DNA from: an uncultured bacterium
GTDB lineage: Bacteria; Patescibacteriota; Minisyncoccia; UBA6257; GWB1-50-10
DNA length: 64,000 nt
NCBI GenBank assembly: GCA_963722655.1
Contig: CAVRNT010000001.1
Coordinates: forward strand, 162,612 to 226,611
Direction: 5' to 3'
The notes below the pieces were generated by a model. That model searched no databases. It saw only the letters and a program-made list of their open reading frames with translations, and was not told the origin of the DNA. The position numbers and the translations under genes were made by a program. This document shows positions 3,841-18,775 of this stretch, in pieces (within the stretch, counting starts at the first letter, position 1; each line of letters begins with the position of its first letter).

Positions 3841-4632
3841 ATGCTGAAATTCTTTGACGCCCATACGCACGCGAACCTAGCGGAGTTCAAGGATGACTAC
3901 AAAGAAGTCATCGGCCGAGCCTTGGCCGCCGGCGTCGGTCTGGTGAATGTGGGTACGGATATCAACGACTCTCGCCGGGCGCTGGAAATCGCGCGCGAAT
4001 TCGAGAAAGAACCGGTATATGCCGCCGTCGGCTTCCACCCGGAATATGCCGCCGACAGATATTTCAATTACGAGGCCTTCAAAAAGCTCGCTCTGGACCA
4101 GAAAACGGTTGCGATAGGAGAATGCGGACTGGACTACTACAGAGAAATAAGCGACAAGAAACAAGAGACAAGAGGAAAGCAAAAGGCGGTTTTTATTGAG
4201 CAAATAAAGCTCGCCCATGAAGTTCAAAAGCCGTTAATGGTCCACTGCCGCGAAGCGTTCAACGATTTAATTAATATTCTTGTCTCTTGTCGCACGTCGC
4301 TTGTCGCCGATAACCCCGGGATCATCCATTTCTTCTCCGGCACGAAGGATGAGGCCCAAAAACTCATTGATCTCGGCTTCAGCTTCACTTTCGGCGGCGT
4401 AATTACTTTTGCCCGCGATCACGACGAGGTTATTAAATCAATGCCGCTAGACCGCATTCTTTCCGAGACCGACGCGCCTTTCGTTGCGCCCGTACCGTAC
4501 CGCGGCAAGCGCAACGAACCGGCCTACGTCGTCAAGACCGTGAAAAAGCTCGCGGAGATTAAGAATGTGAGTGTTGACGAAATGGCGGTGCGAACTTTGG
4601 AGAACGCCCGGCGGGTGTTCGCCGCCAGTTGA
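3841..4632 (+). CDS. tatD: TatD family metal-dependent hydrolase/DNase
   Basis: N-terminal FDAHTHAN motif, conserved E/H/D metal ligands, ~263 aa. Confidence 0.9.
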   Translation: MLKFFDAHTHANLAEFKDDYKEVIGRALAAGVGLVNVGTDINDSRRALEIAREFEKEPVYAAVGFHPEYAADRYFNYEAFKKLALDQKTVAIGECGLDYYREISDKKQETRGKQKAVFIEQIKLAHEVQKPLMVHCREAFNDLINILVSCRTSLVADNPGIIHFFSGTKDEAQKLIDLGFSFTFGGVITFARDHDEVIKSMPLDRILSETDAPFVAPVPYRGKRNEPAYVVKTVKKLAEIKNVSVDEMAVRTLENARRVFAAS

Positions 4633-4664
4633 GAACGCCGATTTTTTCAGCTAGAATCTAGTTA

Positions 4665-7046
4665 ATGAAGCGCTATGATTTCGGCAAGGCCGAAAAGAAA
4701 TGGCAGGCGGAATGGGACAAGGAGAATGTCTACGTCGCTAAAGATAAAAGTCCCAAGGACAAAAAATACGTCCTCATAGAGTTCCCGTACCCTTCGGGTG
4801 AGGGCCTCCACATGGGTCACCTTCGCCCCTACACGGCGGGCGACACCTACAGCCGCTTCCTCCGGATGAACGGATTTGAGGTAATGTATCCGATAGGGTG
4901 GGACGCCTTCGGTCTCCCGGCCGAGAACTATGCCATCAAGAAAGGCATCCAGCCGAAGATCACGACGGCCCAGAACATCGAGAACGCCAAGCGCCAGGTC
5001 AAAAGTTGGGGGATCGGCTTCGACTGGTCGCGCGAGGTGGTGACCACCGACCCCGAGTACTACAAATGGACCCAGTGGATCTTTCTGCAATTCTTCAAGG
5101 CCGGTTTGGCCTACGAGGCGACCGGTCTCATCAACTGGTGCCCCAAGGACAAGACCGGCCTCGCGAACGAGGAGGTGGTCGGCGGTAAGTGCGAGCGCTG
5201 CGGCACTGAGGTGGTGCAGAAGGAGGTGCGCCAGTGGTATTTGAAGATAACGGCCTACGCTGAAAAACTGATAAACGGTCTCAAGAAACTGGACTGGCCG
5301 GAGAGCGTGAAGGTCCAGCAGGAAAACTGGATAGGGAAGAGCGAAGGGGCGTTGATAGATTTTGAGATACAAGGGACAAGGGACAAGATACGGGTTTTCA
5401 CGACGCGGCCGGACACGCTCTTCGGTGCGACGTATATGGTCCTCGCGCCGGAGCACAAGCTGGTGCGTGAGTTGAGCGGCAAGATCACGAATCTAAAAGA
5501 AGTTGACGATTACGTCAAAAAAACCAAGGCGAAGACGGAAGAGGAAAGATTGACGGAAGGCAAAGCGAAAACCGGAGCGGAGCTCAAGGGTATTAAGGCG
5601 ATAAACCCTGCCAACAACGAAAAAATTTCGGTCTTCATTGCCGACTATGTTCTTTCCTCATACGGCACGGGCGCCATCATGGCCGTCCCGGCGCACGACG
5701 AGCGGGATTTTGAGTTCGCCAAGAAGTTCAAGCTACCGATAATCGATGTCATCTCCGGTGGAAAACCAGGCGAACTTTGGGAAGGGAACGGCGTTTTGCA
5801 AAATTCCGGTGAGTTCGACGGCATGGATTCCGAAAAGGCGAGATGGAAGATAACGGATTTCATCCACGGCGAAAGAAAAACGCAGTACAAACTCCGCGAC
5901 TGGGTCTTCTCGCGCCAAAGGTATTGGGGAGAACCAATACCCTTGATACATTGCTCCAAATGCGGAGTGGTTCCCGTGCCCGATGACGAGCTGCCGGTCA
6001 AGTTACCGGAGGTGGAGAAGTATGAGCCGACCGGAACGGGCGAGTCGCCTCTCGCGGCCATCAAATCTTGGGTGAACGTGGAATGTCCCCAGTGTGGCGG
6101 CCCGGCGAAACGCGAAACGAACACCATGCCCCAGTGGGCGGGGAGTTCTTGGTACTATCTGCGTTACTGCGACCCCAAAAACGGAAGAGAACTGGCCTCC
6201 GAAAAACTTTTGGGGCATTGGTTGCCGGTGGATGTCTATTTCGGCGGCATTGAGCATACGACCCTCCATCTTCTGTATTCCCGCTTTTGGCACCAGTTCC
6301 TTTACGACCAAAAGATCGTGCCGACGCCGGAACCATACGCCAAGCGGGTGACGCACGGCATCATCTTGGGGCCCGACGGCGAAAAGATGTCCAAGAGCCG
6401 CGGCAACGTCGTGAACCCGGACGAGATCGTTAAAGAGTTCGGCGCGGACGCTCTCCGGATGTACGAAATGTTCCTCGGACCGCACGAGGCGACCGTGAGT
6501 TGGAACAGCCAGGGCATTTTGGGCATCAGCCGTTTCTTGGACCGCGTTTGGAAGTTCTACGGCGACAAGGAACAAGAGACGGGCGACAAGGAGGTTGAGC
6601 GAGCGGTCCACAGGGCGATCAAGAAGGTGACGGAAGACGTCCAGGCCTTCAAGTTCAACACGGCCATTTCGTCATTGATGATCTGCCTGAATACGATCGA
6701 GGGGAAACCGATCGCAAAGGATCCGAAAGAAAGGTTCCTGAAACTCCTCGCGCCATTCGCGCCGCACATCGCGGAGGAATTGTGGCACGAGCTGGGGAGC
6801 AAAACCTTGATCCATATTGAAAAATGGCCGCAGTACGACGAAAAACTAGTCAAAGAAGAGACCATCGACCTCGTGGTGCAGGTGAACGGCAAGTATCGTG
6901 GTACAGTTAAGATGGAAGCCGGCTTGGTCCAAAGAGAGATCGAAGCGGCGGCGCTCGGTCTCCCGACCGTTCAGGCGGCCATCGGCGGCGGGAAACCCCG
7001 CAAGGTCGTCTACGTCAAAGATCGTTTAATAAACTTCGTCCTATGA
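4665..7046 (+). CDS. leuS: leucyl-tRNA synthetase
   Basis: HMGH (GEGLHMGHLRPYT) and KMSKS (KMSKSRGN) motifs, CP1 editing-domain signature, 793 aa. TAGAAT box 8 nt upstream of the ATG. Confidence 0.95.
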   Translation: MKRYDFGKAEKKWQAEWDKENVYVAKDKSPKDKKYVLIEFPYPSGEGLHMGHLRPYTAGDTYSRFLRMNGFEVMYPIGWDAFGLPAENYAIKKGIQPKITTAQNIENAKRQVKSWGIGFDWSREVVTTDPEYYKWTQWIFLQFFKAGLAYEATGLINWCPKDKTGLANEEVVGGKCERCGTEVVQKEVRQWYLKITAYAEKLINGLKKLDWPESVKVQQENWIGKSEGALIDFEIQGTRDKIRVFTTRPDTLFGATYMVLAPEHKLVRELSGKITNLKEVDDYVKKTKAKTEEERLTEGKAKTGAELKGIKAINPANNEKISVFIADYVLSSYGTGAIMAVPAHDERDFEFAKKFKLPIIDVISGGKPGELWEGNGVLQNSGEFDGMDSEKARWKITDFIHGERKTQYKLRDWVFSRQRYWGEPIPLIHCSKCGVVPVPDDELPVKLPEVEKYEPTGTGESPLAAIKSWVNVECPQCGGPAKRETNTMPQWAGSSWYYLRYCDPKNGRELASEKLLGHWLPVDVYFGGIEHTTLHLLYSRFWHQFLYDQKIVPTPEPYAKRVTHGIILGPDGEKMSKSRGNVVNPDEIVKEFGADALRMYEMFLGPHEATVSWNSQGILGISRFLDRVWKFYGDKEQETGDKEVERAVHRAIKKVTEDVQAFKFNTAISSLMICLNTIEGKPIAKDPKERFLKLLAPFAPHIAEELWHELGSKTLIHIEKWPQYDEKLVKEETIDLVVQVNGKYRGTVKMEAGLVQREIEAAALGLPTVQAAIGGGKPRKVVYVKDRLINFVL

Positions 7047-7942
7047 GCAAGGTCCTCATCATCATCATTGCCCTCATCGTCATCGTTGCGATAGTGATGG
7101 TCGTCAAGCAATTTCAAGGCGTGAAGTTCGGTAGTTTGGGTCCGCTCTTTAAGGTGAACTACACCGTCCCGTCAGGTTTGAGCAATCAGAAAACGAACAT
7201 TTCGTATTCGACGGGCGGGGGCACGACGACGCAAGTGCTGCCAAAACCGGGGCCGACGCCGCCCGCGGGATTCACTGCCGCCCAACTCTCGCCCTACTAC
7301 GGCGAAGTGAAGATCGGGAACGTTTCCGCCGCCTCTTCTTGGAACGGCGTCGCGCAATTTTCTCTCAATGCTTCTTACGGCGGCCTCGCCGCCCCGATCG
7401 ACGTCACGGGCTGGCGTCTCACGTACAACAAGGGGCAGGTGATCGTCCCGACGGCCGCGGCGGATTACATGCCTTCGGGTTTCGAGTATCCGGGCGATGT
7501 CGCCTTGAGCTCTGGCGACGTGCTGAACGTTTACAGCAGTCAAAGCCCCCTAAACGTCAATTTTCGGATGAACCAATGTATTGGCTATTTGAACAACGCC
7601 TATACCTTCACTCCGACCCTGCCGCAAAATTGCGCGGCGGTCTATGACCGTTCCGAGATCGCGACCTTCTCGGGTGCTTGCCAGAACTACATCCTCTCCC
7701 TCTGGGGATGCAGCGTACCGTCGGCCGATCAGTTGAACAATTTTTCAGGTGAGCCGGCCTGTCAATCGGTCCTGAACCGTTTCAACTACACCTATTGTTA
7801 CAATCGGCACCGGTTCGATACCGGCTTTTTCACGAACGACTGGCGCGTTTGGCTGGGCGGGCAGATCGGTTTTGATCAGAGCCACGATCGAGTGCTTTTA
7901 TGGGATAAAAACGGGCTTTTGGTGGACGAGTATATCTACTAG
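7043..7942 (+). CDS. hypothetical membrane-anchored secreted protein, Cys-rich C-terminal half (possible lamin-tail-like beta domain)
   Basis: N-terminal hydrophobic anchor (ALIVIVAIVMVV), eight Cys in the C-terminal 120 aa. The LTD-like assignment is tentative. Confidence 0.45.
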   Translation: MSKVLIIIIALIVIVAIVMVVKQFQGVKFGSLGPLFKVNYTVPSGLSNQKTNISYSTGGGTTTQVLPKPGPTPPAGFTAAQLSPYYGEVKIGNVSAASSWNGVAQFSLNASYGGLAAPIDVTGWRLTYNKGQVIVPTAAADYMPSGFEYPGDVALSSGDVLNVYSSQSPLNVNFRMNQCIGYLNNAYTFTPTLPQNCAAVYDRSEIATFSGACQNYILSLWGCSVPSADQLNNFSGEPACQSVLNRFNYTYCYNRHRFDTGFFTNDWRVWLGGQIGFDQSHDRVLLWDKNGLLVDEYIY

Positions 7943-9978: not shown

Positions 9979-9982
9979 TTAG

Positions 9983-10069
9983 CGGAGGGGGTGAGATTCG
10001 AACTCACGAAAGGATCTCTCCTTTACCGCATTTCAAGTGCGGCGCGTTAGACCGCTCTGCCACCCCTCC
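9983..10069 (-). tRNA. tRNA-Ser (anticodon TGA), long variable arm
   Basis: Manual fold: acceptor GGAGGGG/CCCCTCC, anticodon loop CTTGAAA, T-loop GTTCGAATC. Confidence 0.8.
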
Positions 10070-10122
10070 GTGCGTTGAACGCCGCGTCATCATAAACCGG
10101 CTGGGACGTTTTAATCAAGATT

Positions 10123-10494
10123 TCAATAATGACTGAAAATGTGGAACACGCTCCCGATTAGCGCCGTGAAACCGAAGATAAGGCCGGCGGCGATTATAAC
10201 GATGGCCACGATGGTCAATATCTTGCCGGCGTGATCGACGGCCTTGATGAAGCCGTTGTATTCGTGCTGGTTCTCGAAGTGCCGGCTCGTCGCGGCCATC
10301 TCGTGGCCTTTAATACCAAGATAGATCATAAAGACGATCCAAAAGAAGAAGTTCACGACCGGCACGAGGTAGAGCAGATACCACCAAAGCATGTGGTACT
10401 TCTTGATGGCGATTAGAAACGGCGCTCCGAAGAGGAATGCGCCCCACGACCAACCCGGCGCGGCGGTGATGCCGCCTTTTTTGGTTTCTTCCAT
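10123..10494 (-). CDS. hypothetical small membrane protein (3-4 TM)
   Basis: 123-aa hydrophobic ORF wedged between tRNA genes. Confidence 0.4.
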   Translation of the reverse strand: MEETKKGGITAAPGWSWGAFLFGAPFLIAIKKYHMLWWYLLYLVPVVNFFFWIVFMIYLGIKGHEMAATSRHFENQHEYNGFIKAVDHAGKILTIVAIVIIAAGLIFGFTALIGSVFHIFSHY

Positions 10495-10519
10495 AGGGAA
10501 ATTATAACAAACTTCGTTG

Positions 10520-10590
10520 TGGACCTACGGGGAATCGAACCCCGACCTCCTCCATGCCATGGAGATGTAATACCGTTTTACTATAGGCCC
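10520..10590 (-). tRNA. tRNA-Ala (anticodon GGC)
   Basis: G3:U70 pair in the acceptor stem, anticodon loop ATGGCAT, T-loop TTCGATT. Confidence 0.75.
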
Positions 10591-10591
10591 G

Positions 10592-10663
10592 TGGGCGTTA
10601 GAGGGATTGAACCTCTGACCTTTTCAATGTCAATGAAACGCTCTACCACTGAGCTAAACGCCC
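10592..10663 (-). tRNA. tRNA-Val (anticodon GAC)
   Basis: Acceptor GGGCGTT/AACGCCC, anticodon loop TTGACAT, T-loop TTCAATC. Confidence 0.8.
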
Positions 10664-10732
10664 GCTGACACACAATATATCAGGAGATTTGTTGCGAGAC
10701 AAGGCGATTTACATTATAAATAAGACGCCCTC

Positions 10733-10804
10733 GCCCTCGTAGCTCAACGGATAGAGCTATTCCGTCCTAAGGAAGAGATGGGGGTTCAATTCCCTCCGAG
10801 GGCA
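10733..10804 (+). tRNA. tRNA-Arg (anticodon CCT)
   Basis: Acceptor GCCCTCG/CGAGGGC, anticodon loop GTCCTAA, T-loop TTCAATT. Confidence 0.75.
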
Positions 10805-10814
10805 CAGAGCAAGT

Positions 10815-10904
10815 GGAGGGTTCGCATAGTGGTCTAGTGCGGCGCACTCGAAATGCGCTTGGGGAGAAATCCCCTCACAGGTTCGAATCCTGTACCCTCC
10901 GCCA
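10815..10904 (+). tRNA. tRNA-Ser (anticodon CGA), long variable arm, CCA encoded
   Basis: Acceptor GGAGGGT/ACCCTCC, anticodon loop CTCGAAA, T-loop GTTCGAATC. Confidence 0.8.
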
Positions 10905-11250
10905 GACAGTTTCTTTTATCGCCCTACCGTCTCAGCTGAGGCAGTAGCACGACCGGGACAGCTACCTGAACGTGGTAAAATAAACACACGAGAACTTGTC
11001 ACAAAAATGTTTAGCCCCACCAAACTCAATAGTAGAGGTTTTAACGCAAAAGCCACTCTACCTTACGGCTGTAAGACCTTAAACATAAAATCTGCCATGC
11101 AGGATTTCCTGGATTTTTTAACATTTATTGACACCAGGTTGGTAGAGAAAAAACCCTTCATAAAGGCCGCCATGTCCTGCGGCGTCTTCAAATTGGCAAC
11201 CTTTCGCTGATATTCTTCGTACGTTGGTATCTTCATGTGTTTGTATTGTT

Positions 11251-11335
11251 TGTTGGTTTGTTTTTTCGACTTGCGGCGGGCGGGTTTCGATTGGGAGGCG
11301 GCGAGGGGTATGGTAGCGGAAGAGGTTAGGTTTTT
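11251..11335. repeat. direct repeat copy A (~85 bp, about 85% identical to 13380..13460)
   Basis: Shared core gttttttcgacttgcgg(c)gggcgggt...gggaggcggcgaggggtatggtagcgga(a/g)gag read in both places. Confidence 0.7.
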
Positions 11336-11350
11336 GGAAGGTTTCATCGT

Positions 11351-12037
11351 GTGTTAAACTGGACACAGATTATGAAACCCCGGCAAGCTCCCTTAAGCTA
11401 CATCAAGCAGTACTACGAAGCCGACATCGGTGAGTCGGAAATTCCCGAAAGCCGCTTCTATCAGAAATATCTGAGGAGGGTGAAAGGTAATAGTGTCCTT
11501 AGCGTCGCCTGCGGTCCCCAGTTCTATAACGACCTTGCGTTCTTCGGCTCTAAGCCGAAAGAATACATAGGTCTCGATATCAACAAGAACACGGTTAAGT
11601 TCCTGAAGACCTCTAGAAATAATTACCTCCTCAAAAGCAAGAAAAAGGCGAAAGGCATCAAGGCGGAGGCAATCGTTGGAAATATCCTTAAATACAACCC
11701 CAAGTTCAAGGGAAAGTTCGATTTTGTGATTGCACTGGCTGTTCTCGGAATGTTCAGGGAAAATGATTTCAGAAAAGCCGTCAAAAACATCCATTCATAC
11801 CTGAAGCTTGGAGGAATGTTCCTGGACATAGACTGGATGGATGCCGATCTTCCTAAGGGAGTCTATCTCGAGAAGGTCAAATACCGCTTTTGGACAAATA
11901 AGGGGCCGTCCGTGAAGACGCAAGGCAACATTATTAGGAACGCGGGCTTCAAGATCGTAGAATATGACCATTACTCCCCGGACAAGAAGACATACAAATG
12001 GGGCAAGATATTCGTGTATCTGGCGAGAGCAAAATAA
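11351..12037 (+). CDS. class I SAM-dependent methyltransferase-like protein
   Basis: Rossmann-like motif I region (VLSVACGPQFY ... GLDIN), lower GC than the backbone. The true start may be the internal Met at 11372. Confidence 0.5.
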   Translation: MLNWTQIMKPRQAPLSYIKQYYEADIGESEIPESRFYQKYLRRVKGNSVLSVACGPQFYNDLAFFGSKPKEYIGLDINKNTVKFLKTSRNNYLLKSKKKAKGIKAEAIVGNILKYNPKFKGKFDFVIALAVLGMFRENDFRKAVKNIHSYLKLGGMFLDIDWMDADLPKGVYLEKVKYRFWTNKGPSVKTQGNIIRNAGFKIVEYDHYSPDKKTYKWGKIFVYLARAK

Positions 12038-12066
12038 ACGCAAGCAATGAAAAGGAAGTGTTTTCT

Positions 12067-12621
12067 TTATGTTTTCTCCGGCGAGTAGAGGATCTTGGCT
12101 TGATAAATCGTCCCGATGGTCTGGATGACGCCCATGATCACGAAAAGGGCGGTGAATGAGAAGTAATTGATGATTAGTCCGCCGATTAGGATTGAGACAC
12201 CGGTTATAAGCTCCTCGGTTCCGTGCTCCAGCCCCCAAATAAACCCGGCCCTCTTTTTTTCCTCATACTGGGCGTAAAGGGCGTCCCAGGTCGGGTCGGC
12301 GAGCGCAAGAGCAACACCCAAGCCCGCCTCAACGGCGAAAAGGGCTAAGGGCGTGTGGACAAGAAGGTAGCAGAACGTGAAGACGGCATTCAAGGCGTAG
12401 CCGATAATCATGAGCCTGGCGTGGCCGATCTTATCGGATATGCGGCCGACGAAAACTTCCAGTCCGCCCGTCACGAGCAGGTATATCGCCCAGGCCCAGG
12501 CGATGTCCAGCACGTTCCCGCCGATGCGCCCGGCGAAGATCGCGAAAAGAGGGCCGAAGAGGCCCTCCCCGAACCACCAGAAGCTCGCACCGCCCAAGAG
12601 TATCTTTTCTTCCCGCTTCAT
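12067..12621 (-). CDS. MFS-type transporter fragment (six-helix half only)
   Basis: Six TM helices plus the MFS loop motif GRISDKIGHARLM. 184 aa is about half a normal MFS, so a remnant or split gene. Confidence 0.45.
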   Translation of the reverse strand: MKREEKILLGGASFWWFGEGLFGPLFAIFAGRIGGNVLDIAWAWAIYLLVTGGLEVFVGRISDKIGHARLMIIGYALNAVFTFCYLLVHTPLALFAVEAGLGVALALADPTWDALYAQYEEKKRAGFIWGLEHGTEELITGVSILIGGLIINYFSFTALFVIMGVIQTIGTIYQAKILYSPEKT

Positions 12622-12702
12622 TGAATTGATTATACAGAAAAACCAATCAGCATCCTAATATAAATCTACTGGTTGGTGTAAAATGGAGTAGCAAAGACAG
12701 CG

Positions 12703-13353
12703 ATGAGACCGCGATTTTTACAGTTCAGTTGTCGGGAGGGGAACAAGCCCGATTACCGCCAGGCCAATGCCGTGTTGAAATACAAGCCGGACATTATTCT
12801 TTTTGAGATGCCAGCCGAAGGCGGCAACCCGTCGCTTATCTTCAACAGGTATAAGCCGGACAAGAAGCCGTTTACCAAAGTTGAGAAAATAAAAAAATCG
12901 TTGCGCCGTGCCGCAAAAAAATACCCGTATGCCGCTTCGGATATCCGGGTTTGGGAGAACATAGAAAAGCTCTGGCGGGAGGGACGCGAAACACTCCTAT
13001 TCAACGTAGACGCCCCGCAGGAGTTGCGCGCGCATTACCATAAAATCTACGGGGATATTCCTTACACGCAGGTACGACACGAATGGTGGTTTTGGGCTTA
13101 TCTCTTAATAAGGGAGTGCCAGATGGCGGGTCACATCGAAAATATTCTCAAACACTATCGTGTAAAGAGGAAGCCGACCGTTGCCGTGTTCCTCCAAAGC
13201 ATTCATTGGGAACACGTTAAATTCTTGCTTAGGAAACCTTCGGAGAAAGGAATTTGGCGGTACTATTTTGGCAAGTTTCCGGAAATTAGTCCCGCGAACA
13301 TTAGGGGACCGATAAAAAAGAAGGATAAAATTCTGTATAAGTATTGGAAATAA
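12703..13353 (+). CDS. hypothetical protein
   Basis: 216-aa ORF in the low-GC island, followed by the hairpin terminator at 13370. No recognisable motifs. Confidence 0.4.
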   Translation: MRPRFLQFSCREGNKPDYRQANAVLKYKPDIILFEMPAEGGNPSLIFNRYKPDKKPFTKVEKIKKSLRRAAKKYPYAASDIRVWENIEKLWREGRETLLFNVDAPQELRAHYHKIYGDIPYTQVRHEWWFWAYLLIRECQMAGHIENILKHYRVKRKPTVAVFLQSIHWEHVKFLLRKPSEKGIWRYYFGKFPEISPANIRGPIKKKDKILYKYWK

Positions 13354-13369
13354 AAAGGATAGCTTCAAA

Positions 13370-13398
13370 CTGCCCGTTTTGAGGCAGTTTTGTTTTTT
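13370..13398 (+). terminator. rho-independent terminator-like hairpin (ctgcc-cgttttgag-ggcag) followed by a T-run
   Basis: Stem-loop plus ttttgttttttcg immediately 3' of the 12703..13353 ORF. Confidence 0.55.
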
Positions 13399-13460
13399 CG
13401 ACTTGCGGGCGGGTGGGGCTGGGAGGCGGCGAGGGGTATGGTAGCGGAGGAGTGGTAAAT
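13380..13460. repeat. direct repeat copy B (partner of 11251..11335)
   Basis: See copy A. Lies just 3' of the RT stop (minus strand). The minus-strand reading encodes a 36-aa peptide whose N-terminus matches the 94-aa ORF at 11063..11347. Confidence 0.7.
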
Positions 13461-13475
13461 AGGGACAGGGTTCAT

Positions 13476-14501
13476 CTAGGAAGCCCAGAATTTGTTCAAC
13501 AGTTCCTCGCGTACCCCATAAGCATCCGCATGGGATAGGACGCCGAGGTATGACTGCATGGATTGCTCAAAATTCAGCTTGCTGATTTCCCCGGCCTCGT
13601 ATTCTTCCATTCGTTTTTCCAGCTTCCTGAACATCCGGCGCTTGGTTTTCAACCGGATAAGCCTGTGGTGAGGGAAAACGACGTATCCGAGGAAATCTAT
13701 GCCTTGACAAACGGAACTGAGTATGCTTTTATTAGGATGTAGTTTGAGAGCTAGTTCGTTTTCAAAGAATTCAGAGATGAACGGCAGAAGTCCTTCGAGA
13801 TATTTTCTGTCTTCGGAGATTATGACGAAGTCATCGGTGTAGCGAACATAATATTTCACCCGTAATTTATGTTTCACAAACTGATCAAATTCGTTCATGT
13901 AGATATTGGCGAAGAGCTGGGAGGTAAGATTCCCTATCGGGATGCCTCTCCCCGGCGCGCTTTCGTAGCTCTTCACAATGGATTCCAAAAGCCATACCGC
14001 ATCAACGTCCTTGATGCGTTTTTTGATTATGGAAAGGAGAATTTTGTGGTCCACGCTATCGAAAAACTTCCGTACGTCGCACTTCAGGACATAAGAACGG
14101 CGGGTATTGTTCCTACTCACCTTCCTTATCATATTTCCGAGAGCCTCTACTCCCTTATGGTTGCCGTATCCGACCCGGCAGGAAAAAGAGGTCGGGATGA
14201 ATGTCGGCTCGAAGATTGGGTTCAAGACAGAGAAGACGGCGTGGTGGATGATACGGTCCCGCACGGTCGCCTTGTGGATGTGTCGCGGTTTGGGATCGCT
14301 GATGTAGAAGCCTTTGTAGGGGCCGTGAATGTAGGTTTTGTTTGCAAGCTCGCGGTGAAGCTTGAAAATATTCTCCTCCAGATTCCATTCGAAATACCGG
14401 ACGTCTTTCTTGCCAGTCTTCCCGCGCCGGAATTCGTCCCAGGCCGAAAAGAGGTTTTCGGAGGAAATCATCCGTTCGAAGATATTGGCGTATGTTTTCA
14501 T
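13476..14501 (-). CDS. DGR-type reverse transcriptase
   Basis: RT motifs: N-terminal SENLFSAWDEFRRGK, IPIGNLTSQLFANIYM (the DGR-specific IGxxxSQ motif 4 rather than the group II QGxxxSP), and a YVRYTDDFVI catalytic box. 341 aa with no maturase or endonuclease domain. Confidence 0.9.
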   Translation of the reverse strand: MKTYANIFERMISSENLFSAWDEFRRGKTGKKDVRYFEWNLEENIFKLHRELANKTYIHGPYKGFYISDPKPRHIHKATVRDRIIHHAVFSVLNPIFEPTFIPTSFSCRVGYGNHKGVEALGNMIRKVSRNNTRRSYVLKCDVRKFFDSVDHKILLSIIKKRIKDVDAVWLLESIVKSYESAPGRGIPIGNLTSQLFANIYMNEFDQFVKHKLRVKYYVRYTDDFVIISEDRKYLEGLLPFISEFFENELALKLHPNKSILSSVCQGIDFLGYVVFPHHRLIRLKTKRRMFRKLEKRMEEYEAGEISKLNFEQSMQSYLGVLSHADAYGVREELLNKFWAS

Positions 14502-14515
14502 AGATTTAAAAACTA

Positions 14516-14863
14516 ATGGACGACTTCGACATCCCCATCTTCAAAAAGACCTACGACCTCTACAAGACCTTTTACGAATATCGGAATCTCGTCCCAAAGC
14601 TGGACCGGCACACGATCTGGCAGAAATCGGAAGACCTGATACTCGGCATCCTCGAGGGGATTCTCACGGCGAGCAAACTGTATAAGGCGGCTAAGGCGCC
14701 AGTTCTTGAAAATGCGAGCGTCAAACTGAATCTCCTGCGCGTTTTCGTACGTCTCATGAAAGAGGTGAAAACTATCGACAATAAGAAGTACGCGGCGCTG
14801 GAAGAGATGATCGATGAGATTGGCCGGATGCTCGGTGGGTGGATCAAGTCAGCGAAAGAGTGA
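14516..14863 (+). CDS. avd: Avd-like accessory variability determinant (four-helix bundle)
   Basis: 115-aa basic helical protein. C-terminus EEMIDEIGRMLGGWIKSAKE closely matches the Bordetella phage bAvd C-terminus (AEVGRILGSWIARV, recalled from memory). Confidence 0.8.
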   Translation: MDDFDIPIFKKTYDLYKTFYEYRNLVPKLDRHTIWQKSEDLILGILEGILTASKLYKAAKAPVLENASVKLNLLRVFVRLMKEVKTIDNKKYAALEEMIDEIGRMLGGWIKSAKE

Positions 14864-14877
14864 GCGATGGAACAATG

Positions 14878-14895
14878 CCCCGGTATAAGCCGGGG
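14878..14895. terminator. GC hairpin ccccgg-tataag-ccgggg between the avd stop and the TR
   Basis: Perfect 6-bp GC stem. Possible avd terminator or part of the TR RNA 3' structure. Confidence 0.4.
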
Positions 14896-14921
14896 CATTC
14901 CCATTCATTGAAGAGTAACTT

Positions 14922-15048
14922 CGGGACGAAACCCGAGGCCGAACCATAGTTGTCGTTGGCATTGCTGACCCAGTTCGTGTCGAGCTTGACCTTGCCGTCG
15001 TTGAAGTTGAAGTTCGGGGCCTTGGAGAAATCGCCATCGGCATCGGGA
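14922..15048 (-). repeat. DGR template repeat (TR), sense on minus strand
   Basis: 127 bp homologous to the 3' ends of both target genes. Its translation in the target frame is NDGKVKLDTNWVSNANDNYGSASGFVPK, with Asn (AAC) at the variable positions. All TR/VR mismatches fall on TR adenines. Confidence 0.85.
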
Positions 15049-15432
15049 ATCATTGCTCTCGCCCGTCCGTGTCACCGGAAATCGAGGTTTGCCGCTCAAA
15101 AAGGAGCTTATATCCTCTCAATCCTGAATTTTATCCGGCAGCATCCTTTTTAGGGGAATCTGCACTAGACAAGAGCAAGCAGTGATCTCCTCAACACAAC
15201 GCGCTCTTAGAAACCTTGGTCGCTAAGATTCCGGTTGCTTTTCTCTTCCTTGAAGAGAGAGTTCGGTGGCGGCAATCCGTGGACGGCCGTGCATGAACCT
15301 AATCTCATCTTGAATTATACAAAAATAAAGAGGTTGTCCACAATGAAGCGGATAACCTCTCAAAAATGACGGACGAAAGGATCAAAAATGAAATATCAAA
15401 AGATCCAAGCGTTCAATGTGCAACGTTCAGCA

Positions 15433-16341
15433 TCACTGCGGGACGAAACCCGAGGCCGAACCAAAGTAGTCGCCGGCATAGCCGACCCAGCTCGCGCCGA
15501 GCCCGACCCTGCCGTCGCGGAAGTCGAAGCCCGGGGCCCTGGAGAAAACGCCAACGGCAACGGGAGAGAATTCATCGCCCGGGCAATCAACATCCAACTC
15601 CTCGTAACGGACGAGGCGCTCGGGGTGAACCAGTATCTGGCATCCCGTATGGAATGCACCAAGACCAAATTCTGGTGGATCCATGACTTCCCAGGCCCTG
15701 CGAGTCGAACGGCCCGCGTGGCGCTTGCCGAACTGGAACGGGAAGATAAGGATGTCGCCCTTCTGTTTCTCGGCGATGAGTTCAAGCGCTTGAGCCGTGC
15801 GAGCGTGCTCGCGGAACCGATCCGGCAGGATTTCGCCTTCGCGATAGTTGTAGAACTTGCGCGAGGCGGCGATCTTCTCGAGGACGAGATGCGTCGCTCG
15901 GCAGTACCGTTCTTTCGGGTCTTTGACCTCCGGGAAAAACCGGGCGGCCACCGCATCAATCGAGGGAAATGCTCCCCAGCCCTCGGCCCATTCTGGAAGA
16001 GCGAGCGTCGGCAGGACCTTTTCCATGAAGTCCGTAACGTATCCGAGCGAAAGTTGGAAGATACCCGCGAGGATATCGACCTGCTTCCCGATGGGCTTCA
16101 GACCCTTGTACTCCGGAGGGTATGCGTAGCCGGAATGAACTTCCTCATCCGCATATTTGTTGGAGGTGGTGAGTTCCTCGATGATCTTTTTGAGACCATC
16201 TTGTAGTTCTCCACCCCGCTCATTGAGCATTTGAGCGCGGGCGTCGTCGAGCCCGGCTTTGTTGTAGACCGCTTCACAGAGGCCTACGCAATGGAGACCC
16301 TTCGGATCTCTGGACGTGATCAATGTCTTAGACATCGTCAT
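15433..16341 (-). CDS. DGR target protein 1 (variable C-terminal ligand-binding domain, CLec/FGE-like inferred)
   Basis: C-terminus ...DGRVGLGASWVGYAGDYFGSASGFVPQ is encoded by VR1. It is a paralog of the 16559..17440 protein. No signal peptide. Confidence 0.85.
   Translation of the reverse strand: MTMSKTLITSRDPKGLHCVGLCEAVYNKAGLDDARAQMLNERGGELQDGLKKIIEELTTSNKYADEEVHSGYAYPPEYKGLKPIGKQVDILAGIFQLSLGYVTDFMEKVLPTLALPEWAEGWGAFPSIDAVAARFFPEVKDPKERYCRATHLVLEKIAASRKFYNYREGEILPDRFREHARTAQALELIAEKQKGDILIFPFQFGKRHAGRSTRRAWEVMDPPEFGLGAFHTGCQILVHPERLVRYEELDVDCPGDEFSPVAVGVFSRAPGFDFRDGRVGLGASWVGYAGDYFGSASGFVPQ
15436..15565 (-). repeat. variable repeat VR1 (cognate to TR 14922..15048)
   Basis: About 20 substitutions relative to the TR, every one at a TR adenine (seen as T on the plus strand). 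The 3' 23 nt gggacgaaacccgaggccgaacc is identical to the TR (IMH-like). Confidence 0.85.
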
Positions 16342-16408
16342 CGTCTCCTTTCTTTGTTAGTGGATTAAATTGTTTAAGTGCACGTTCCTGAATTTCAGGA
16401 ACTTTTGG

Positions 16409-16437
16409 AGTATACCATAAGAATACTTGTATGTCAA
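16409..16437 (-). promoter_or_regulatory. sigma70-like promoter for target gene 1 (TTGACA-17 bp-TATACT)
   Basis: Read on the minus strand: tttgacatacaagtattcttatggtatact. It is followed by a 9-bp inverted repeat (gttcctgaa/attcaggaac) before the RBS AAAGGAG. Confidence 0.55.
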
Positions 16438-16445
16438 ACTAGATT

Positions 16446-16486
16446 TGAAATAAAAAGAGGGTTGCCAACAAGTGTTGGTAACCCTC
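16446..16486 (-). terminator. rho-independent terminator of target gene 2 (gagggttaccaac-actt-gttggcaaccctc + T-run)
   Basis: 12-bp stem with one mismatch, then ctttttatttc on the minus strand. Confidence 0.55.
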
Positions 16487-16558
16487 AAAAATAACGCGGA
16501 CTAAAGGAGCAAACGACCAGACGTCAAAAGATCCAAGCGTTCAATTTGCAATGTTCGA

Positions 16559-17440
16559 TCACTGCGGGACGAAACCCGAGGCCGAACCATAGTAGTCGCT
16601 GGCAGCGCTGACCCAGCGCGCGCCGAGCCCGACCCTGCCGTCGCTGAAGCGGAAGCTCGGGGCCCCGGAGAAATCGCCATCGGCATCGGGAGCGTATTCG
16701 TCTCCTCCGCAGTCGACGTGCAATTGCTCCCAGCGGACGAGCCGATTATGGGTCAGCACTCTGCATCCTTCGGCGACGCTTCCCAAGCCGAACTCGTTTT
16801 GGTCGTAGAGGACTCTGCCGCGACGGACAGATTTTCCCCTCCAACGCAATCCGGCTTGACTCGGGATGATGATGAGATCACCCGGTTGGTCCTTCTTGAT
16901 TTTTGCCTCAAGCCCGGCCGTCTTTTTCGACTGTTGCAAGCGCCCCGGCCCAAGCTGGCCGTTCCGGTAATTCACGAAGTTTTGATATTTCTTTCCCAGG
17001 GCGGCAAGCACTTGTTCCGTTGCGGCGTTGTAATTGCCGAACGCTTCCCACCACACATAGACCAGCGGGCTTTCAATCCAATCCGGCAGATTCTTTAAGC
17101 TGTCGTACCAGGCCCCTCCCTTAGTTAGAGCCCATGTTGCGTTCAATCCGGGGAAATACTCCAAAAGAATGTCGATCTGCTCTCGGATTGATTTCCGCTT
17201 GTATTCCTTGGGGTAAGTGTAGTCGGACGATTTTTCCTCATCCGCGTAGAGATACTTGATGAATATCTCCTTGCGGGAAATTCGGACTGCCGTTTGCAGC
17301 ATGTCGCCGTGCTTTAGAAGACACTGAGCTTCGTCGTTTGTGGGTTTCGGCGTAAAGAGTTCGTCCTCCATTACGACGCGACTCAGTTGCTTTTCTTGAC
17401 CATCTGTCATTGGCATGATCGATGTGGTATTCATCGTCAT
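16559..17440 (-). CDS. DGR target protein 2 (paralog of target 1)
   Basis: C-terminus ...DGRVGLGARWVSAASDYYGSASGFVPQ is encoded by VR2. The 5' UTR architecture matches target 1. Confidence 0.85.
   Translation of the reverse strand: MTMNTTSIMPMTDGQEKQLSRVVMEDELFTPKPTNDEAQCLLKHGDMLQTAVRISRKEIFIKYLYADEEKSSDYTYPKEYKRKSIREQIDILLEYFPGLNATWALTKGGAWYDSLKNLPDWIESPLVYVWWEAFGNYNAATEQVLAALGKKYQNFVNYRNGQLGPGRLQQSKKTAGLEAKIKKDQPGDLIIIPSQAGLRWRGKSVRRGRVLYDQNEFGLGSVAEGCRVLTHNRLVRWEQLHVDCGGDEYAPDADGDFSGAPSFRFSDGRVGLGARWVSAASDYYGSASGFVPQ
16562..16691 (-). repeat. variable repeat VR2
   Basis: About 19 substitutions relative to the TR, all at TR adenines. Identical 3' IMH-like block. Confidence 0.85.
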
Positions 17441-17509
17441 TGCCTCCTTTCTTTGGTTTAGTGAATATGAAGTTTTTAAGTTGCGTTCTTGGGTTTCAAG
17501 AATGCCATA

Positions 17510-17538
17510 ATATTACCATAATACGGTATAAAAGTCAA
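17510..17538 (-). promoter_or_regulatory. sigma70-like promoter for target gene 2 (TTGACT-17 bp-TAATAT)
   Basis: Minus strand: tttgacttttataccgtattatggtaatat. It is followed by an inverted repeat (gcattcttg/caagaacgc) and the RBS AAAGGAGG. Confidence 0.5.
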
Positions 17539-17779
17539 ATGTGCGTAATGTCCCAATAGCTTGGAATAGCCCCATTGTAGCGTCTCATTTGTCTCATTTG
17601 ATTCGACCGAAACCCCAGAAAGTGACACTTCCCCAATAACCGTTCCACTGTCACTTTTGTAACCTGTCACTTTCCATATAGCCCGACCCGTAGGCCTCGG
17701 AGCGGCTTTTCGGACTCGCGCTCCGAAAATGCTTACACTGATTAAAAGGAAAAAGTCCACAACCGGGGCACACCGCCAG

Positions 17780-17814
17780 TGCAAAAGAGCGACCCGTTGG
17801 GTCGCTCTTTTGCA
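17780..17814. terminator. 16-bp perfect hairpin (tgcaaaagagcgaccc-gtt-gggtcgctcttttgca) just 3' of tRNA-Gly
   Basis: Perfect inverted repeat adjacent to the tRNA 3' end. Confidence 0.45.
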
Positions 17815-17826
17815 TGCACTTTTGGG

Positions 17827-17897
17827 TGCGGGTAGGCGGAATCGGACCGCCGTCTCATCCTTGGCAAGGACGTGTTCTGCCACTAAACCATACCCGC
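17827..17897 (-). tRNA. tRNA-Gly (anticodon GCC)
   Basis: Acceptor GCGGGTA/TACCCGC, anticodon loop TTGCCAA, T-loop TCCGATT. Confidence 0.8.
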
Positions 17898-18064
17898 AGT
17901 CGTCACTCCGGAGGCGGACCGCTCGGCCCCTTCACGTAGGGGGCGCCGGTCGGTCCATGGAACGTTCCGGTGTATTTCGGCGTCGGCCAAAGCGCTAAAA
18001 CCAAATATATCATAAGGCCGAACAAGATGGCAATTAAAATCGAGTAGTGCCACGTTCTCATTTT

Positions 18065-18139
18065 TGGCGTCCCTACGAGGAATCGAACCTCGATCCCAGG
18101 TTCCGCAAACCTGTACTCTATCCGTTGAGCTATAGGGAC
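18065..18139 (-). tRNA. tRNA-Arg (anticodon GCG by manual fold; isotype less certain), CCA encoded
   Basis: Acceptor GTCCCTA/TAGGGAC, anticodon stem CAGGT/ACCTG with loop TTGCGGA. Confidence 0.65.
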
Positions 18140-18147
18140 AACTTTCT

Positions 18148-18657
18148 CTAGAATCCCAGGAACCGCGTGAAGATGTCCATGAAGGACTCTTCGTGTTCCA
18201 CTTCCGGCAACTTTCCTTCCAAGAACTCCCGCGCCTGCGCCGCCGTCTGGCCGTCCAAGAGGACTCGCAGGTACGGATTGAAGGACGTCTTGCGCTTCAG
18301 GACCATTTCGTCCAACCGGTTCGGCCGCTCGGTGATGCTGAAGTTCTCCAAAGCATCATAAGGGTAAAATTGCCTTTCGCCAAGATGGCAGCCGTCTTTG
18401 GTCAAGCGGCATTCCATCACCTCCGGCTTGCGCCGACCGAGCATGATCACCATCGCGGCGGCGAGGACGATGAAAACGGCGAAGAAGAAATCCTTCTGCC
18501 AAAGGGCGATCACGACGAGGAGGAGGGAAAAGGCGATGACCAAAAGATACCAGTTGAGGTCCTTTTCGTAATAGTCATGCTCCGCCGCCCGCCAGCTGAT
18601 CTCTTCGGGTGCCCGCCGCTCTGCGGTGACATTCGTTTGTTTTTTGGTCCTCGGCAT
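18148..18657 (-). CDS. hypothetical membrane protein (2 TM)
   Basis: 169-aa ORF between two tRNA genes. Hydrophobic segments at residues ~35-75. Confidence 0.45.
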   Translation of the reverse strand: MPRTKKQTNVTAERRAPEEISWRAAEHDYYEKDLNWYLLVIAFSLLLVVIALWQKDFFFAVFIVLAAAMVIMLGRRKPEVMECRLTKDGCHLGERQFYPYDALENFSITERPNRLDEMVLKRKTSFNPYLRVLLDGQTAAQAREFLEGKLPEVEHEESFMDIFTRFLGF

Positions 18658-18662
18658 TGTCT

Positions 18663-18737
18663 TGGTAGCCTCACCGGGAATCGAACCCGGATTTACGCCG
18701 TGAAAGGGCGCTGTCCTAACCGTTAGACGATAAGGCC
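18663..18737 (-). tRNA. tRNA-Glu (anticodon TTC), CCA encoded
   Basis: Anticodon stem GCGCC/GGCGT with loop CTTTCAC, T-loop TTCGATT. Confidence 0.75.
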
Positions 18738-18775
18738 TCGCTTCCCAATATACCCAAAACTCGAGCTTCGGGCAA

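Follow-up and report, generated by a model that had tools for sequence, protein, structure and literature searches.

The first survey of diversity-generating retroelements (DGRs) among candidate-phyla-radiation (CPR) and DPANN organisms was reportedly that of Paul et al. in 2017. In the set of Wu et al. 2018, 90% of CPR DGRs have the architecture B3, in which a template repeat (TR) is followed by the accessory gene avd and a reverse transcriptase (RT), written TR-(avd)-RT, an order found almost nowhere else (PMC5758913). B3-like elements fall into the CPR-restricted DGR clade 2 of Roux et al. 2021, where CPR DGR targets are reported to be without transmembrane or other recognisable domains (PMC8144416). 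Here we analyse an element of this type in a 64-kb stretch of DNA from an uncultured member of the Patescibacteriota (contig CAVRNT010000001.1). This stretch is called the window; all coordinates are window positions unless another locus is named, and the minus strand is the sense strand of the RT and of its target genes.

The RNA of a DGR has been described in structural detail for Bordetella phage BPP-1, whose gene order is mtd-avd-TR-brt. There, nucleotides Sp53-56 pair with the 3' part of the TR to form the template:primer duplex, G57 and C58 form a linker, and Sp59-70 pair upstream of the TR in the duplex termed cPRT Stop (bioRxiv 10.1101/2023.10.23.563531). A stem-loop and adenosines come next, followed by a thumb ring that is single-stranded and by a stem-loop that binds the RT, and an Avd-binding stem-loop lies directly 3' of the TR (bioRxiv 10.1101/2023.10.23.563531). 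We propose that B3 DGRs use a circularly permuted form of this RNA: the primer/stop strand and the protein-binding elements that come after it would lie in a ~250-nt domain 5' of the TR, priming would take place within an invariant ACU-NN junction (U15181/G15180 in the window), and the variable repeats (VRs) would be marked as recipients by a TTG array and not by a hairpin. We give this reading a probability of roughly 0.45.

A CPR-type DGR with two targets

That the window holds an intact, chromosomal and apparently functional DGR of the CPR type, in the order target(s)-TR-(avd)-RT, we regard as close to settled. On the minus strand are the target genes T2 (16559..17440, 293 aa) and T1 (15433..16341, 302 aa), the 127-nt TR (14922..15048) and the RT gene (13476..14501, 341 aa); avd (14516..14863, 115 aa) lies on the plus strand, with the TR on one side and the RT on the other. 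By the open reading frame (ORF) list and by comparison with relatives, this TR-(avd)-RT order with avd on the opposite strand agrees with the published definition of architecture B3, and the element adds an ordinary member to that known CPR class. At the level of the cassette we saw no difference from the CPR/DPANN DGRs of B3 and clade 2: gene order and orientation, Avd, the C-terminal VR, more than one target, a Patescibacteria host, a chromosomal location and targets without signal, transmembrane or known domains are all common to them. With BPP-1 the element has in common an IGxxxSQ RT, Avd, TR-to-VR changes at adenines only, a GC-rich IMH (initiation of mutagenic homing) sequence, a target with a C-type-lectin fold and a stem-loop directly past the TR. 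It differs in that avd is inverted and placed between TR and RT, and in that two cellular targets without secretion signals stand in place of a phage tail fibre.

A repeat finder returned a three-copy direct repeat at 14915, 15432 and 16558. An earlier note on this DNA, made from the sequence alone, had placed a 127-nt TR on the minus strand here and VRs at the ends of two paralogous minus-strand genes. This layout is borne out by the alignment of the TR, without gaps, with VR1 (15439..15565, minus strand; offset +517 from the TR) at the C-terminal end of T1 and VR2 (16565..16691, minus strand; offset +1643) at that of T2. When mismatches were tabulated by TR base, a check which the note had proposed, its claim that every substitution falls on a TR adenine stood (38/38), and its counts of about 20 and 19 gave way to 21 for VR1 and 17 for VR2. 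The TR contains 29 A in 127 nt, so that confinement to adenines has a hypergeometric p of 8e-18 for VR1 and 1e-13 for VR2. Twelve of these adenines stand at codon position 1, 17 at position 2 and none at position 3, and all changed codons (17 in VR1, 12 in VR2) are nonsynonymous. Read in the target frame, the TR reads ...TNWVSNANDNYGSASGFVP and holds six AAC codons and one AAT, the asparagine-rich composition described earlier.

The invariant 23 nt at the 3' end of the three copies, also seen from the sequence and compared there with an IMH, proved to be exact. The GC-rich 23-mer GGTTCGGCCTCGGGTTTCGTCCC ends TR, VR1 and VR2 alike and has three exact copies in the 64 kb against none expected; in the TR it belongs to an IMH*-like GC-rich end at 14922-14945. 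Directly past it the TR reads GAAGTTA and both VRs GCAGTGA. Donor (IMH*) and recipient (IMH) are expected to differ in this way, and a TR/VR difference of this type recurs in relatives.

The same core, with the TR on the RT strand, avd opposite and the RT next, is shared by 20 of 60 GTDB loci with a T1 relative and by a further locus, L062. TRs in these 21 loci are 126-137 nt long with 13-23 substitutions per VR, tandem pairs of targets occur in L003 and L020, and homologues carry Parcubacteria or Patescibacteria names, in keeping with the CPR-type pattern that had been suggested (architecture B3, PMC5758913; domain-less targets, PMC8144416). Over 23 TR/VR pairs from the window and related loci, 415 of 421 differences lie at A. 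The spectrum of the window and 20 related loci is skewed, with 265 A-to-G changes, 90 A-to-T and 60 A-to-C; A-to-G makes up 27 of the 38 changes in the window itself. A bias of the RT or selection could lie behind this skew.

A conserved RNA domain adjoins the template repeat

From the T1 stop to the TR there are 384 nt, holding a terminator-like hairpin, a -10-like box and ~250 nt that are strongly conserved, with many invariant positions. The hairpin and its T-run past T1 (15320..15361, minus strand; GAGAGGTTATCC...GGACAACCTC TTTATTTTT) have equivalent, covarying hairpins in relatives. The TATAAT box that follows (15314..15319, minus strand) is matched by TATAMT at the corresponding place in relatives and would be the promoter of the RNA domain. 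The structured 5' domain of a putative DGR RNA lies at 15049..15300 (minus strand). In the 5' to 3' direction it comprises helix H1 (15265-15300), helix H2 (15197-15237), the 5' strand of helix P-a (15181-15194), an invariant junction ACU-GC-UU (15177-15183), the 5' strand of helix H3 (15167-15178), helix H4 (15138-15163), an A-rich single strand GGAUAAAAUUCAG (15124-15136), helix H5 (15077-15124) and the 3' strand of H3 (15053-15068). RNAalifold predicted 58 pairs, with compensatory changes in 44.

A covariance model, R1, built on a 155-nt core, has a single match in the window (15047-15200, 135.7 bits). To separate the RNA from the target family, we assembled an RT-seeded set of 80 metagenomic loci, fetched by RT similarity at 46-66% identity. 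R1 matches 58 of these 80 and 22 target-seeded loci. The matches lie on the RT strand and directly upstream of the TR, at ~530-700 nt upstream of the RT in the RT-seeded loci, with one exception on the opposite strand (L092). Most RT-seeded loci without a match are too short upstream. In the target-seeded loci, matches are limited to those with RT/avd or with a contig ending there, and none falls in an orphan-target locus; several R1-positive loci have their VRs in unrelated genes. In an alignment of 58 sequences, 95.2% of cells are paired compared with 41-51% when partners are slid, and covariation is 0.786 compared with 0.226 in shuffles. As judged from these alignments, the RNA domain and its helices are conserved, covarying and confined to DGR neighbourhoods.

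Rfam searches left the domain unmatched at gathering thresholds and, apart from chance-level hits, at E<=10. Among the families so searched are RT-1 to RT-19, the motifs of Weinberg et al.; RT-10 represents the TR-RT spacer of Bordetella. Neither sequence nor covariance-model similarity links the window RNA to RT-10 or to any other Rfam family. Membership in the Bordetella-type RNA family, which occupies the 3' TR-RT spacer, was therefore rejected, the family models being unmatched; the likeness is one of topology. Within the 5' domain, CCGAACUCUCUCUUCAAGG (15243-15266, minus strand) closely resembles a motif past the TR, CCGAAGUUACUCUUCAAUG (14906-14924, minus strand); they form a direct repeat, with no complementarity between them. 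CCGAACUCUCUCUUCAAGG might serve the GAGGAG strand as an alternative partner.

Helices on both flanks of the TR and a model for priming

A core strand, 5'-UUGAGGAGAUCACU-GC-UUGCUCUUGUCU-3' (15194-15167), forms two helices in succession, P-a and then H3. In P-a it pairs with AGUUACUCUUCAA (14908..14920, minus strand), which lies directly past the last TR/VR-homologous base. The second part of the core strand pairs in H3 with GGACGGGCGAGAGCAA (15068-15053), ending 4 nt ahead of TR/VR homology. Over a 19-locus alignment of P-a and H3, 91% of cells are paired compared with ~50% when the partners are slid, both sides have changed in 14 of 24 pairs, and none of 500 shuffles reaches the observed values. 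P-a covaries across subclades, GAGGAG/CUCCUC being one of its pairs, and distant subclades have wholly different P-a sequences that are nevertheless complementary (AAUGAAGA/UCUUCAUU, GAUUUAGA/UCUAAAUC and AGACAAGAC/GUCUUGUCU). The ACU:AGU end of P-a is constant across subclades, and its ACU is nearly invariant.

Past P-a comes a stem-loop with the core AATGCCCCGG-CTTATA-CCGGGGCATT (14869..14902, minus strand), with a predicted stability of -15.9 kcal/mol (z = -4.7) that none of 200 shuffles equals. All 21 related loci have a perfect 10-17-bp hairpin of differing sequence at this place. The TR is only 58 nt from the end of avd, and the stem-loop is a candidate for an Avd-binding stem-loop, for a terminator shared with avd, or for both. 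A scan for canonical intrinsic terminators did not call it, and no T-run lies past it in the window; such a terminator is possible in AT-rich relatives.

The arrangement has the same topology as the Bordetella phage RNA. In both, a 3'-flank duplex, a 2-nt linker (GC in each case) and a 5'-flank duplex come first; next are a stem-loop, a single strand rich in A and another stem-loop, in the window H4, GGAUAAAAUUCAG and H5. By this analogy we infer that P-a and H3 are the counterparts of the template:primer duplex and the cPRT-Stop duplex; covariation shows the helices, and the comparison with the phage suggests the roles we assign to them. The position differs, in that the primer/stop strand and the later elements stand 5' of the TR in the window, whereas in BPP-1 they stand in a 140-nt spacer 3' of the TR. 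A location 5' of the TR fits with avd, on the other strand, occupying the place of that spacer.

Under the permuted-RNA model, a noncoding RNA of ~430 nt would be transcribed from the -10-like box at ~15314 and would comprise the structured 5' domain (~250 nt), the TR (127 nt), a short conserved 3' motif and the strong stem-loop. RT and Avd would bind this RNA, with the post-TR hairpin as the candidate Avd-binding stem-loop. An internal 2'-OH, that of U15181 or of a neighbouring nucleotide, would prime cDNA synthesis, and the TR would be copied with misincorporation opposite adenines. The cDNA would then replace its homologous VR at the 3' end of either T1 or T2; the TTG array would mark the VRs as recipients, and the invariant GC-rich IMH would set the 3' boundary. 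As a result, up to ~20 surface codons would be recoded in the C-type-lectin-fold tip of two signal-less paralogues of ~300 aa.

Several observations weigh against this model. Its priming step rests on topological analogy. A consensus promoter scan made no call ahead of the RNA domain, and both the promoter and the RNA ends are our own assignments. The 58-sequence alignment was fitted to the covariance model and so favours the structure of that model. An ungapped per-locus test of P-a gave p<=0.05 in just 14 of 55 loci; this test missed the window itself on account of a 1-nt bulge, and the 19-locus alignment count is the better test. The linker is GC in the closest relatives alone and UC, UG or AC elsewhere. 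Lastly, the post-TR hairpin may be only a terminator for avd.

Some of these points suit a different account, which we consider rather unlikely but the likeliest of the alternatives: the TR helices would be a structural clamp only, with priming elsewhere, either 3' of the TR in antisense avd or from target DNA, and the post-TR hairpin would be a bidirectional terminator. The hairpin of AT-rich relatives does have A- and T-tract flanks like those of a bidirectional terminator, and the linker nucleotides vary across subclades. The short distance from hairpin to avd, ~5-10 nt, counts both for and against this account. Against a clamp alone, the ACU at the 3' end of the P-a 5' strand pairs with an AGU immediately beside the final base of TR/VR homology, as the strands of a template:primer duplex would, and H3 ends 4 nt ahead of TR/VR homology, as a stop element should.

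The permuted-RNA model also supposes that the conserved 250-nt region belongs to the retroelement RNA at all. It could instead be the 3' untranslated region or terminator of the target, an independent small RNA, or a leader that regulates the RT. The ends of the RNA are inferred, the region follows a target gene at most loci, and the RT has no room for its own promoter in the 14-nt gap that separates it from avd, so that a long transcript reaching the RT, with the region as its leader, is plausible. We nonetheless think this improbable. The region adjoins the TR in 81 of 81 instances; it stays with TR, avd and RT where the target gene lies on the opposite strand (L004, L029) and where the targets belong to other families (L063, L077, L084, L107, L112); it is absent from orphan-target loci; and two covarying helices tie it to both flanks of the TR.

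A TTG array on the recipient side

A Bordetella-style hairpin past the VRs was sought and rejected (z = +0.35 and +1.6). Where BPP-1 has a GC hairpin past the VR, the window has a periodic TTG array, at 15375..15432 beside VR1 and at 16500..16558 beside VR2 (both minus strand). In the window and in L002-L062 and L063-L142, the first ~64 nt past each target stop hold 4-8 YTTG(R) units with a period of 7-9 nt, an array that we also refer to as 8-nt-periodic. Over 24 target flanks there are 134 TTG compared with 47.4 expected, and 92 of 110 spacings are of 7-9 nt. The array is also present past the VRs of other target families in the RT-seeded loci and is absent past the TR. A 33-nt repeat in the VR1 flank, D4 (15396-15428), is 94% identical to the VR2 flank; the array accounts for this similarity of the flanks despite proteins that are only 40% identical. 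We read the TTG array as a candidate recognition element of the recipient site. We found no earlier description of the RNA domain, of the TR-flank helices or of the VR TTG array in the literature we covered, which did not include Paul et al. 2017 (PMC5436926), so that a prior description is possible.

Evidence of activity and targets in trans

In the window, the genes of the element are intact, no TR/VR difference lies at a base other than A, and the IMH copies are identical. From this intactness and from a sister element we infer that the element is currently active. The evidence of activity, gathered by comparing assembled sequences, is direct for the sister element and indirect for that of the window. 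The sister is L062, on a contig of 804,691 bp, the nearest relative of the cassette, which carries an orthologue of T2 only. When L062 was compared with L143, an assembly from another sample, 8,981 nt aligned with 11 differences, all of them within the VR (L062 8758-8842, L143 4764-4847). Ten of them substitute a base at a TR-A position; the eleventh, the loss of 1 nt beside AAC, causes a frameshift (product P0251, 326 aa).

The L062 cassette stands among genes for a relaxase (Replic_Relax), two TrwB/TraG-like coupling proteins and a large serine recombinase (3917-7882 and 14079-16876 of that locus), and it seems to be carried in that genome by an integrative, conjugative-like element. The sequences on either side of it are unrelated to those around the window's cassette. 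The cassette thus moves between contexts, and T1, given that L062 has T2 alone, was gained or lost as a unit.

There is little chance, in our estimate, that the element is a fossil whose VRs record past adenine mutagenesis and whose targets are no longer diversified. T1 has a match of 100% identity on a public NCBI/ENA contig of 379,531 bp. The only other copy of VR1 that we found is on an independent contig of 1,154 nt (run ERR10755942), which agrees with the window at every base of T1 and VR1 that it covers; this counts against present activity, as does the absence of any RT within 8 kb of roughly half the target homologues in GTDB genomes. However, all four ORFs are intact with the catalytic motifs of the RT conserved, and decay would have added non-A changes where we count 0 in 38 differences and three identical copies of the IMH. 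The sister element, moreover, varies between samples only in its VR.

Orphan copies of the target, for their part, can be targets in trans. In Spechtbacteria SB0662_bin_43 (L024, L029, L037 and L038), one DGR is accompanied by three remote paralogous targets on other contigs, and comparison of the remote VRs with the single TR places 20 of 27, 21 of 22 and 24 of 27 differences at A. Some targets without a nearby DGR are thus served in trans, and the window's RT may have additional targets beyond the 64 kb.

Reverse transcriptase and Avd

The profile searches that had been proposed for the 341-aa DGR-type RT and the 115-aa Avd-like protein matched both. The RT is recognised by RVT_1 (4.9e-23) and has IGNLTSQ at RT motif 4 ([ILV]GxxxSQ) and the YxDD box as YTDD within YVRYTDD; PIGNLxSQ and YTDD are invariant among 14 relatives. 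Avd scores 84.5 bits with the NCBI equivalog NF033474 (DivGenRetAVD; cut-off 80) and 8.6e-19 with Pfam bAvd (PF22296). That the RT could instead come from a group II intron, a retron or a defence system, with the repeats a coincidence, is refuted by the tests run: the top NCBIfam score is that of the group II intron RT/maturase (TIGR04416, 154.3 bits), with weaker matches to Drt and retron RTs, but in this profile library, which holds no DGR-specific RT model, all such scores are far under their cut-offs (300 bits for group II), Rfam places no intron or retron RNA family in the window, the motif is IGNLTSQ and not QGxxxSP, an Avd equivalog is present and the three repeats differ at adenines alone.

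The RTs of eight loci (L005, L007, L010, L015, L020, L030, L034 and L045) match as two segments split near residue 181-186 and 20-60 nt apart. This break between the fingers and palm motifs is a variable insertion or else a frameshift.

The 21 related loci and almost all of the 80 RT-seeded ones have avd and RT in this divergent arrangement. The start codons of the two genes are 14 nt apart in the window (14502-14515) and 0-60 nt apart in relatives. With so small a gap, each promoter must lie inside the other gene, unless the RT is transcribed by read-through from the TR RNA, antisense to avd. Sense/antisense effects linking avd to the transcript of TR and RT are possible.

A family of targets with a predicted C-type-lectin fold

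T1 and T2 are paralogues with 40% identity. Neither has a Pfam or NCBIfam match, including the FGE-sulfatase family of Pfam. By hydropathy, the one measure applied, neither has a signal-like or transmembrane-like segment (highest Kyte-Doolittle 19-residue mean 1.26 for T1 and 0.58 for T2), in agreement with the lack of signal peptides noted before. More than 650 homologues of T1 were found, of ~300 aa and none with a Pfam domain; those with names come from Jorgensen-, Falkow-, Pace-, Vogel-, Wolfe-, Uhr- and other Parcubacteria. Three of them (P0011, P0026 and P0051) are labelled 'ribosomal protein S16' by JGI, a label that the sequences do not back; Wu et al. report ribosomal protein genes inside some CPR DGR cassettes (PMC5758913).

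Structure prediction, suggested by the earlier note for the target C termini, was poor with 26 close homologues (pLDDT 56.8) and reached pLDDT 93.1 and pTM 0.85 with a 99-sequence alignment. In the predicted structure the C termini adopt a C-type-lectin fold that displays the variable residues. Sequence identity to TvpA (2y3c), Mtd (1yu0) and the C-terminal domain of Bd2740 (8oks) is 6-11%. For the N-terminal helical domain of ~170 aa no solved or viral structure was matched, Foldseek against PDB and BFVD giving nothing under E = 0.5, and PDB sequences searched with profiles from the target alignments yielded chance-level matches alone.

Ahead of the VR, at T1 residues 203-216 (~15694-15735), a basic motif Q-x-G-x-R-H-x-G-[RK]-S-x-R-R-A is nearly invariant, and Y74, Q87, R242 and D252 are invariant in the family, outside the variable region. 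This conservation suggests that the target family has a non-variable activity or binding site. By analogy with other variable proteins, the targets would bind a variable ligand, most likely inside the cell. Promoter-like sites precede both genes on the minus strand, with 11 of 12 consensus positions for T1 (16409..16437, TTGACA-17-TATACT with TG) and 9 of 12 for T2 (17510..17538).

Genomic setting

The window is chromosomal, with genes for LeuRS, an HtrA-like protease, a short IF-2 and TyrRS and 16 tRNA genes. The DGR lies between two tRNA clusters (9982-10904, and 17823-18737 with Gly, Arg, Glu), where G+C is 0.48-0.52 compared with ~0.58; this region of lower G+C (10500-18750) could be an old insertion. 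Integrase and other mobile-element genes were sought beside the DGR of the window and none was found, the neighbours being housekeeping genes and tRNAs. An ORF of 184 aa at 12067-12621 matches the first half alone of the MFS_1 profile.

Implications

By itself, the element is one more CPR DGR beside the thousands already catalogued. The inversion of avd, the structured RNA in the spacer between target and TR, the VRs without a Bordetella-type hairpin and the IMH*/IMH difference had all been overlooked in the earlier note. The locus contributes an RNA model, the TTG array and a well-defined family of targets that lack a secretion signal. Roux et al. asked whether the targets of CPR DGRs are truly not membrane-bound; for this question the family is a clean case, and it bears on what an intracellular hypervariable protein with a lectin fold would bind.

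The B3 RNA model is testable: it names helices, predicts a priming nucleotide and a stop helix, and offers a candidate element on the target side. It could guide the reconstitution of CPR DGRs or their use as mutagenesis tools. If true, it would define a new RNA family, beside the 81 TR/avd/RT cassettes here, and the permuted RNA would be the first mechanistic model for the most abundant cellular class of DGRs.

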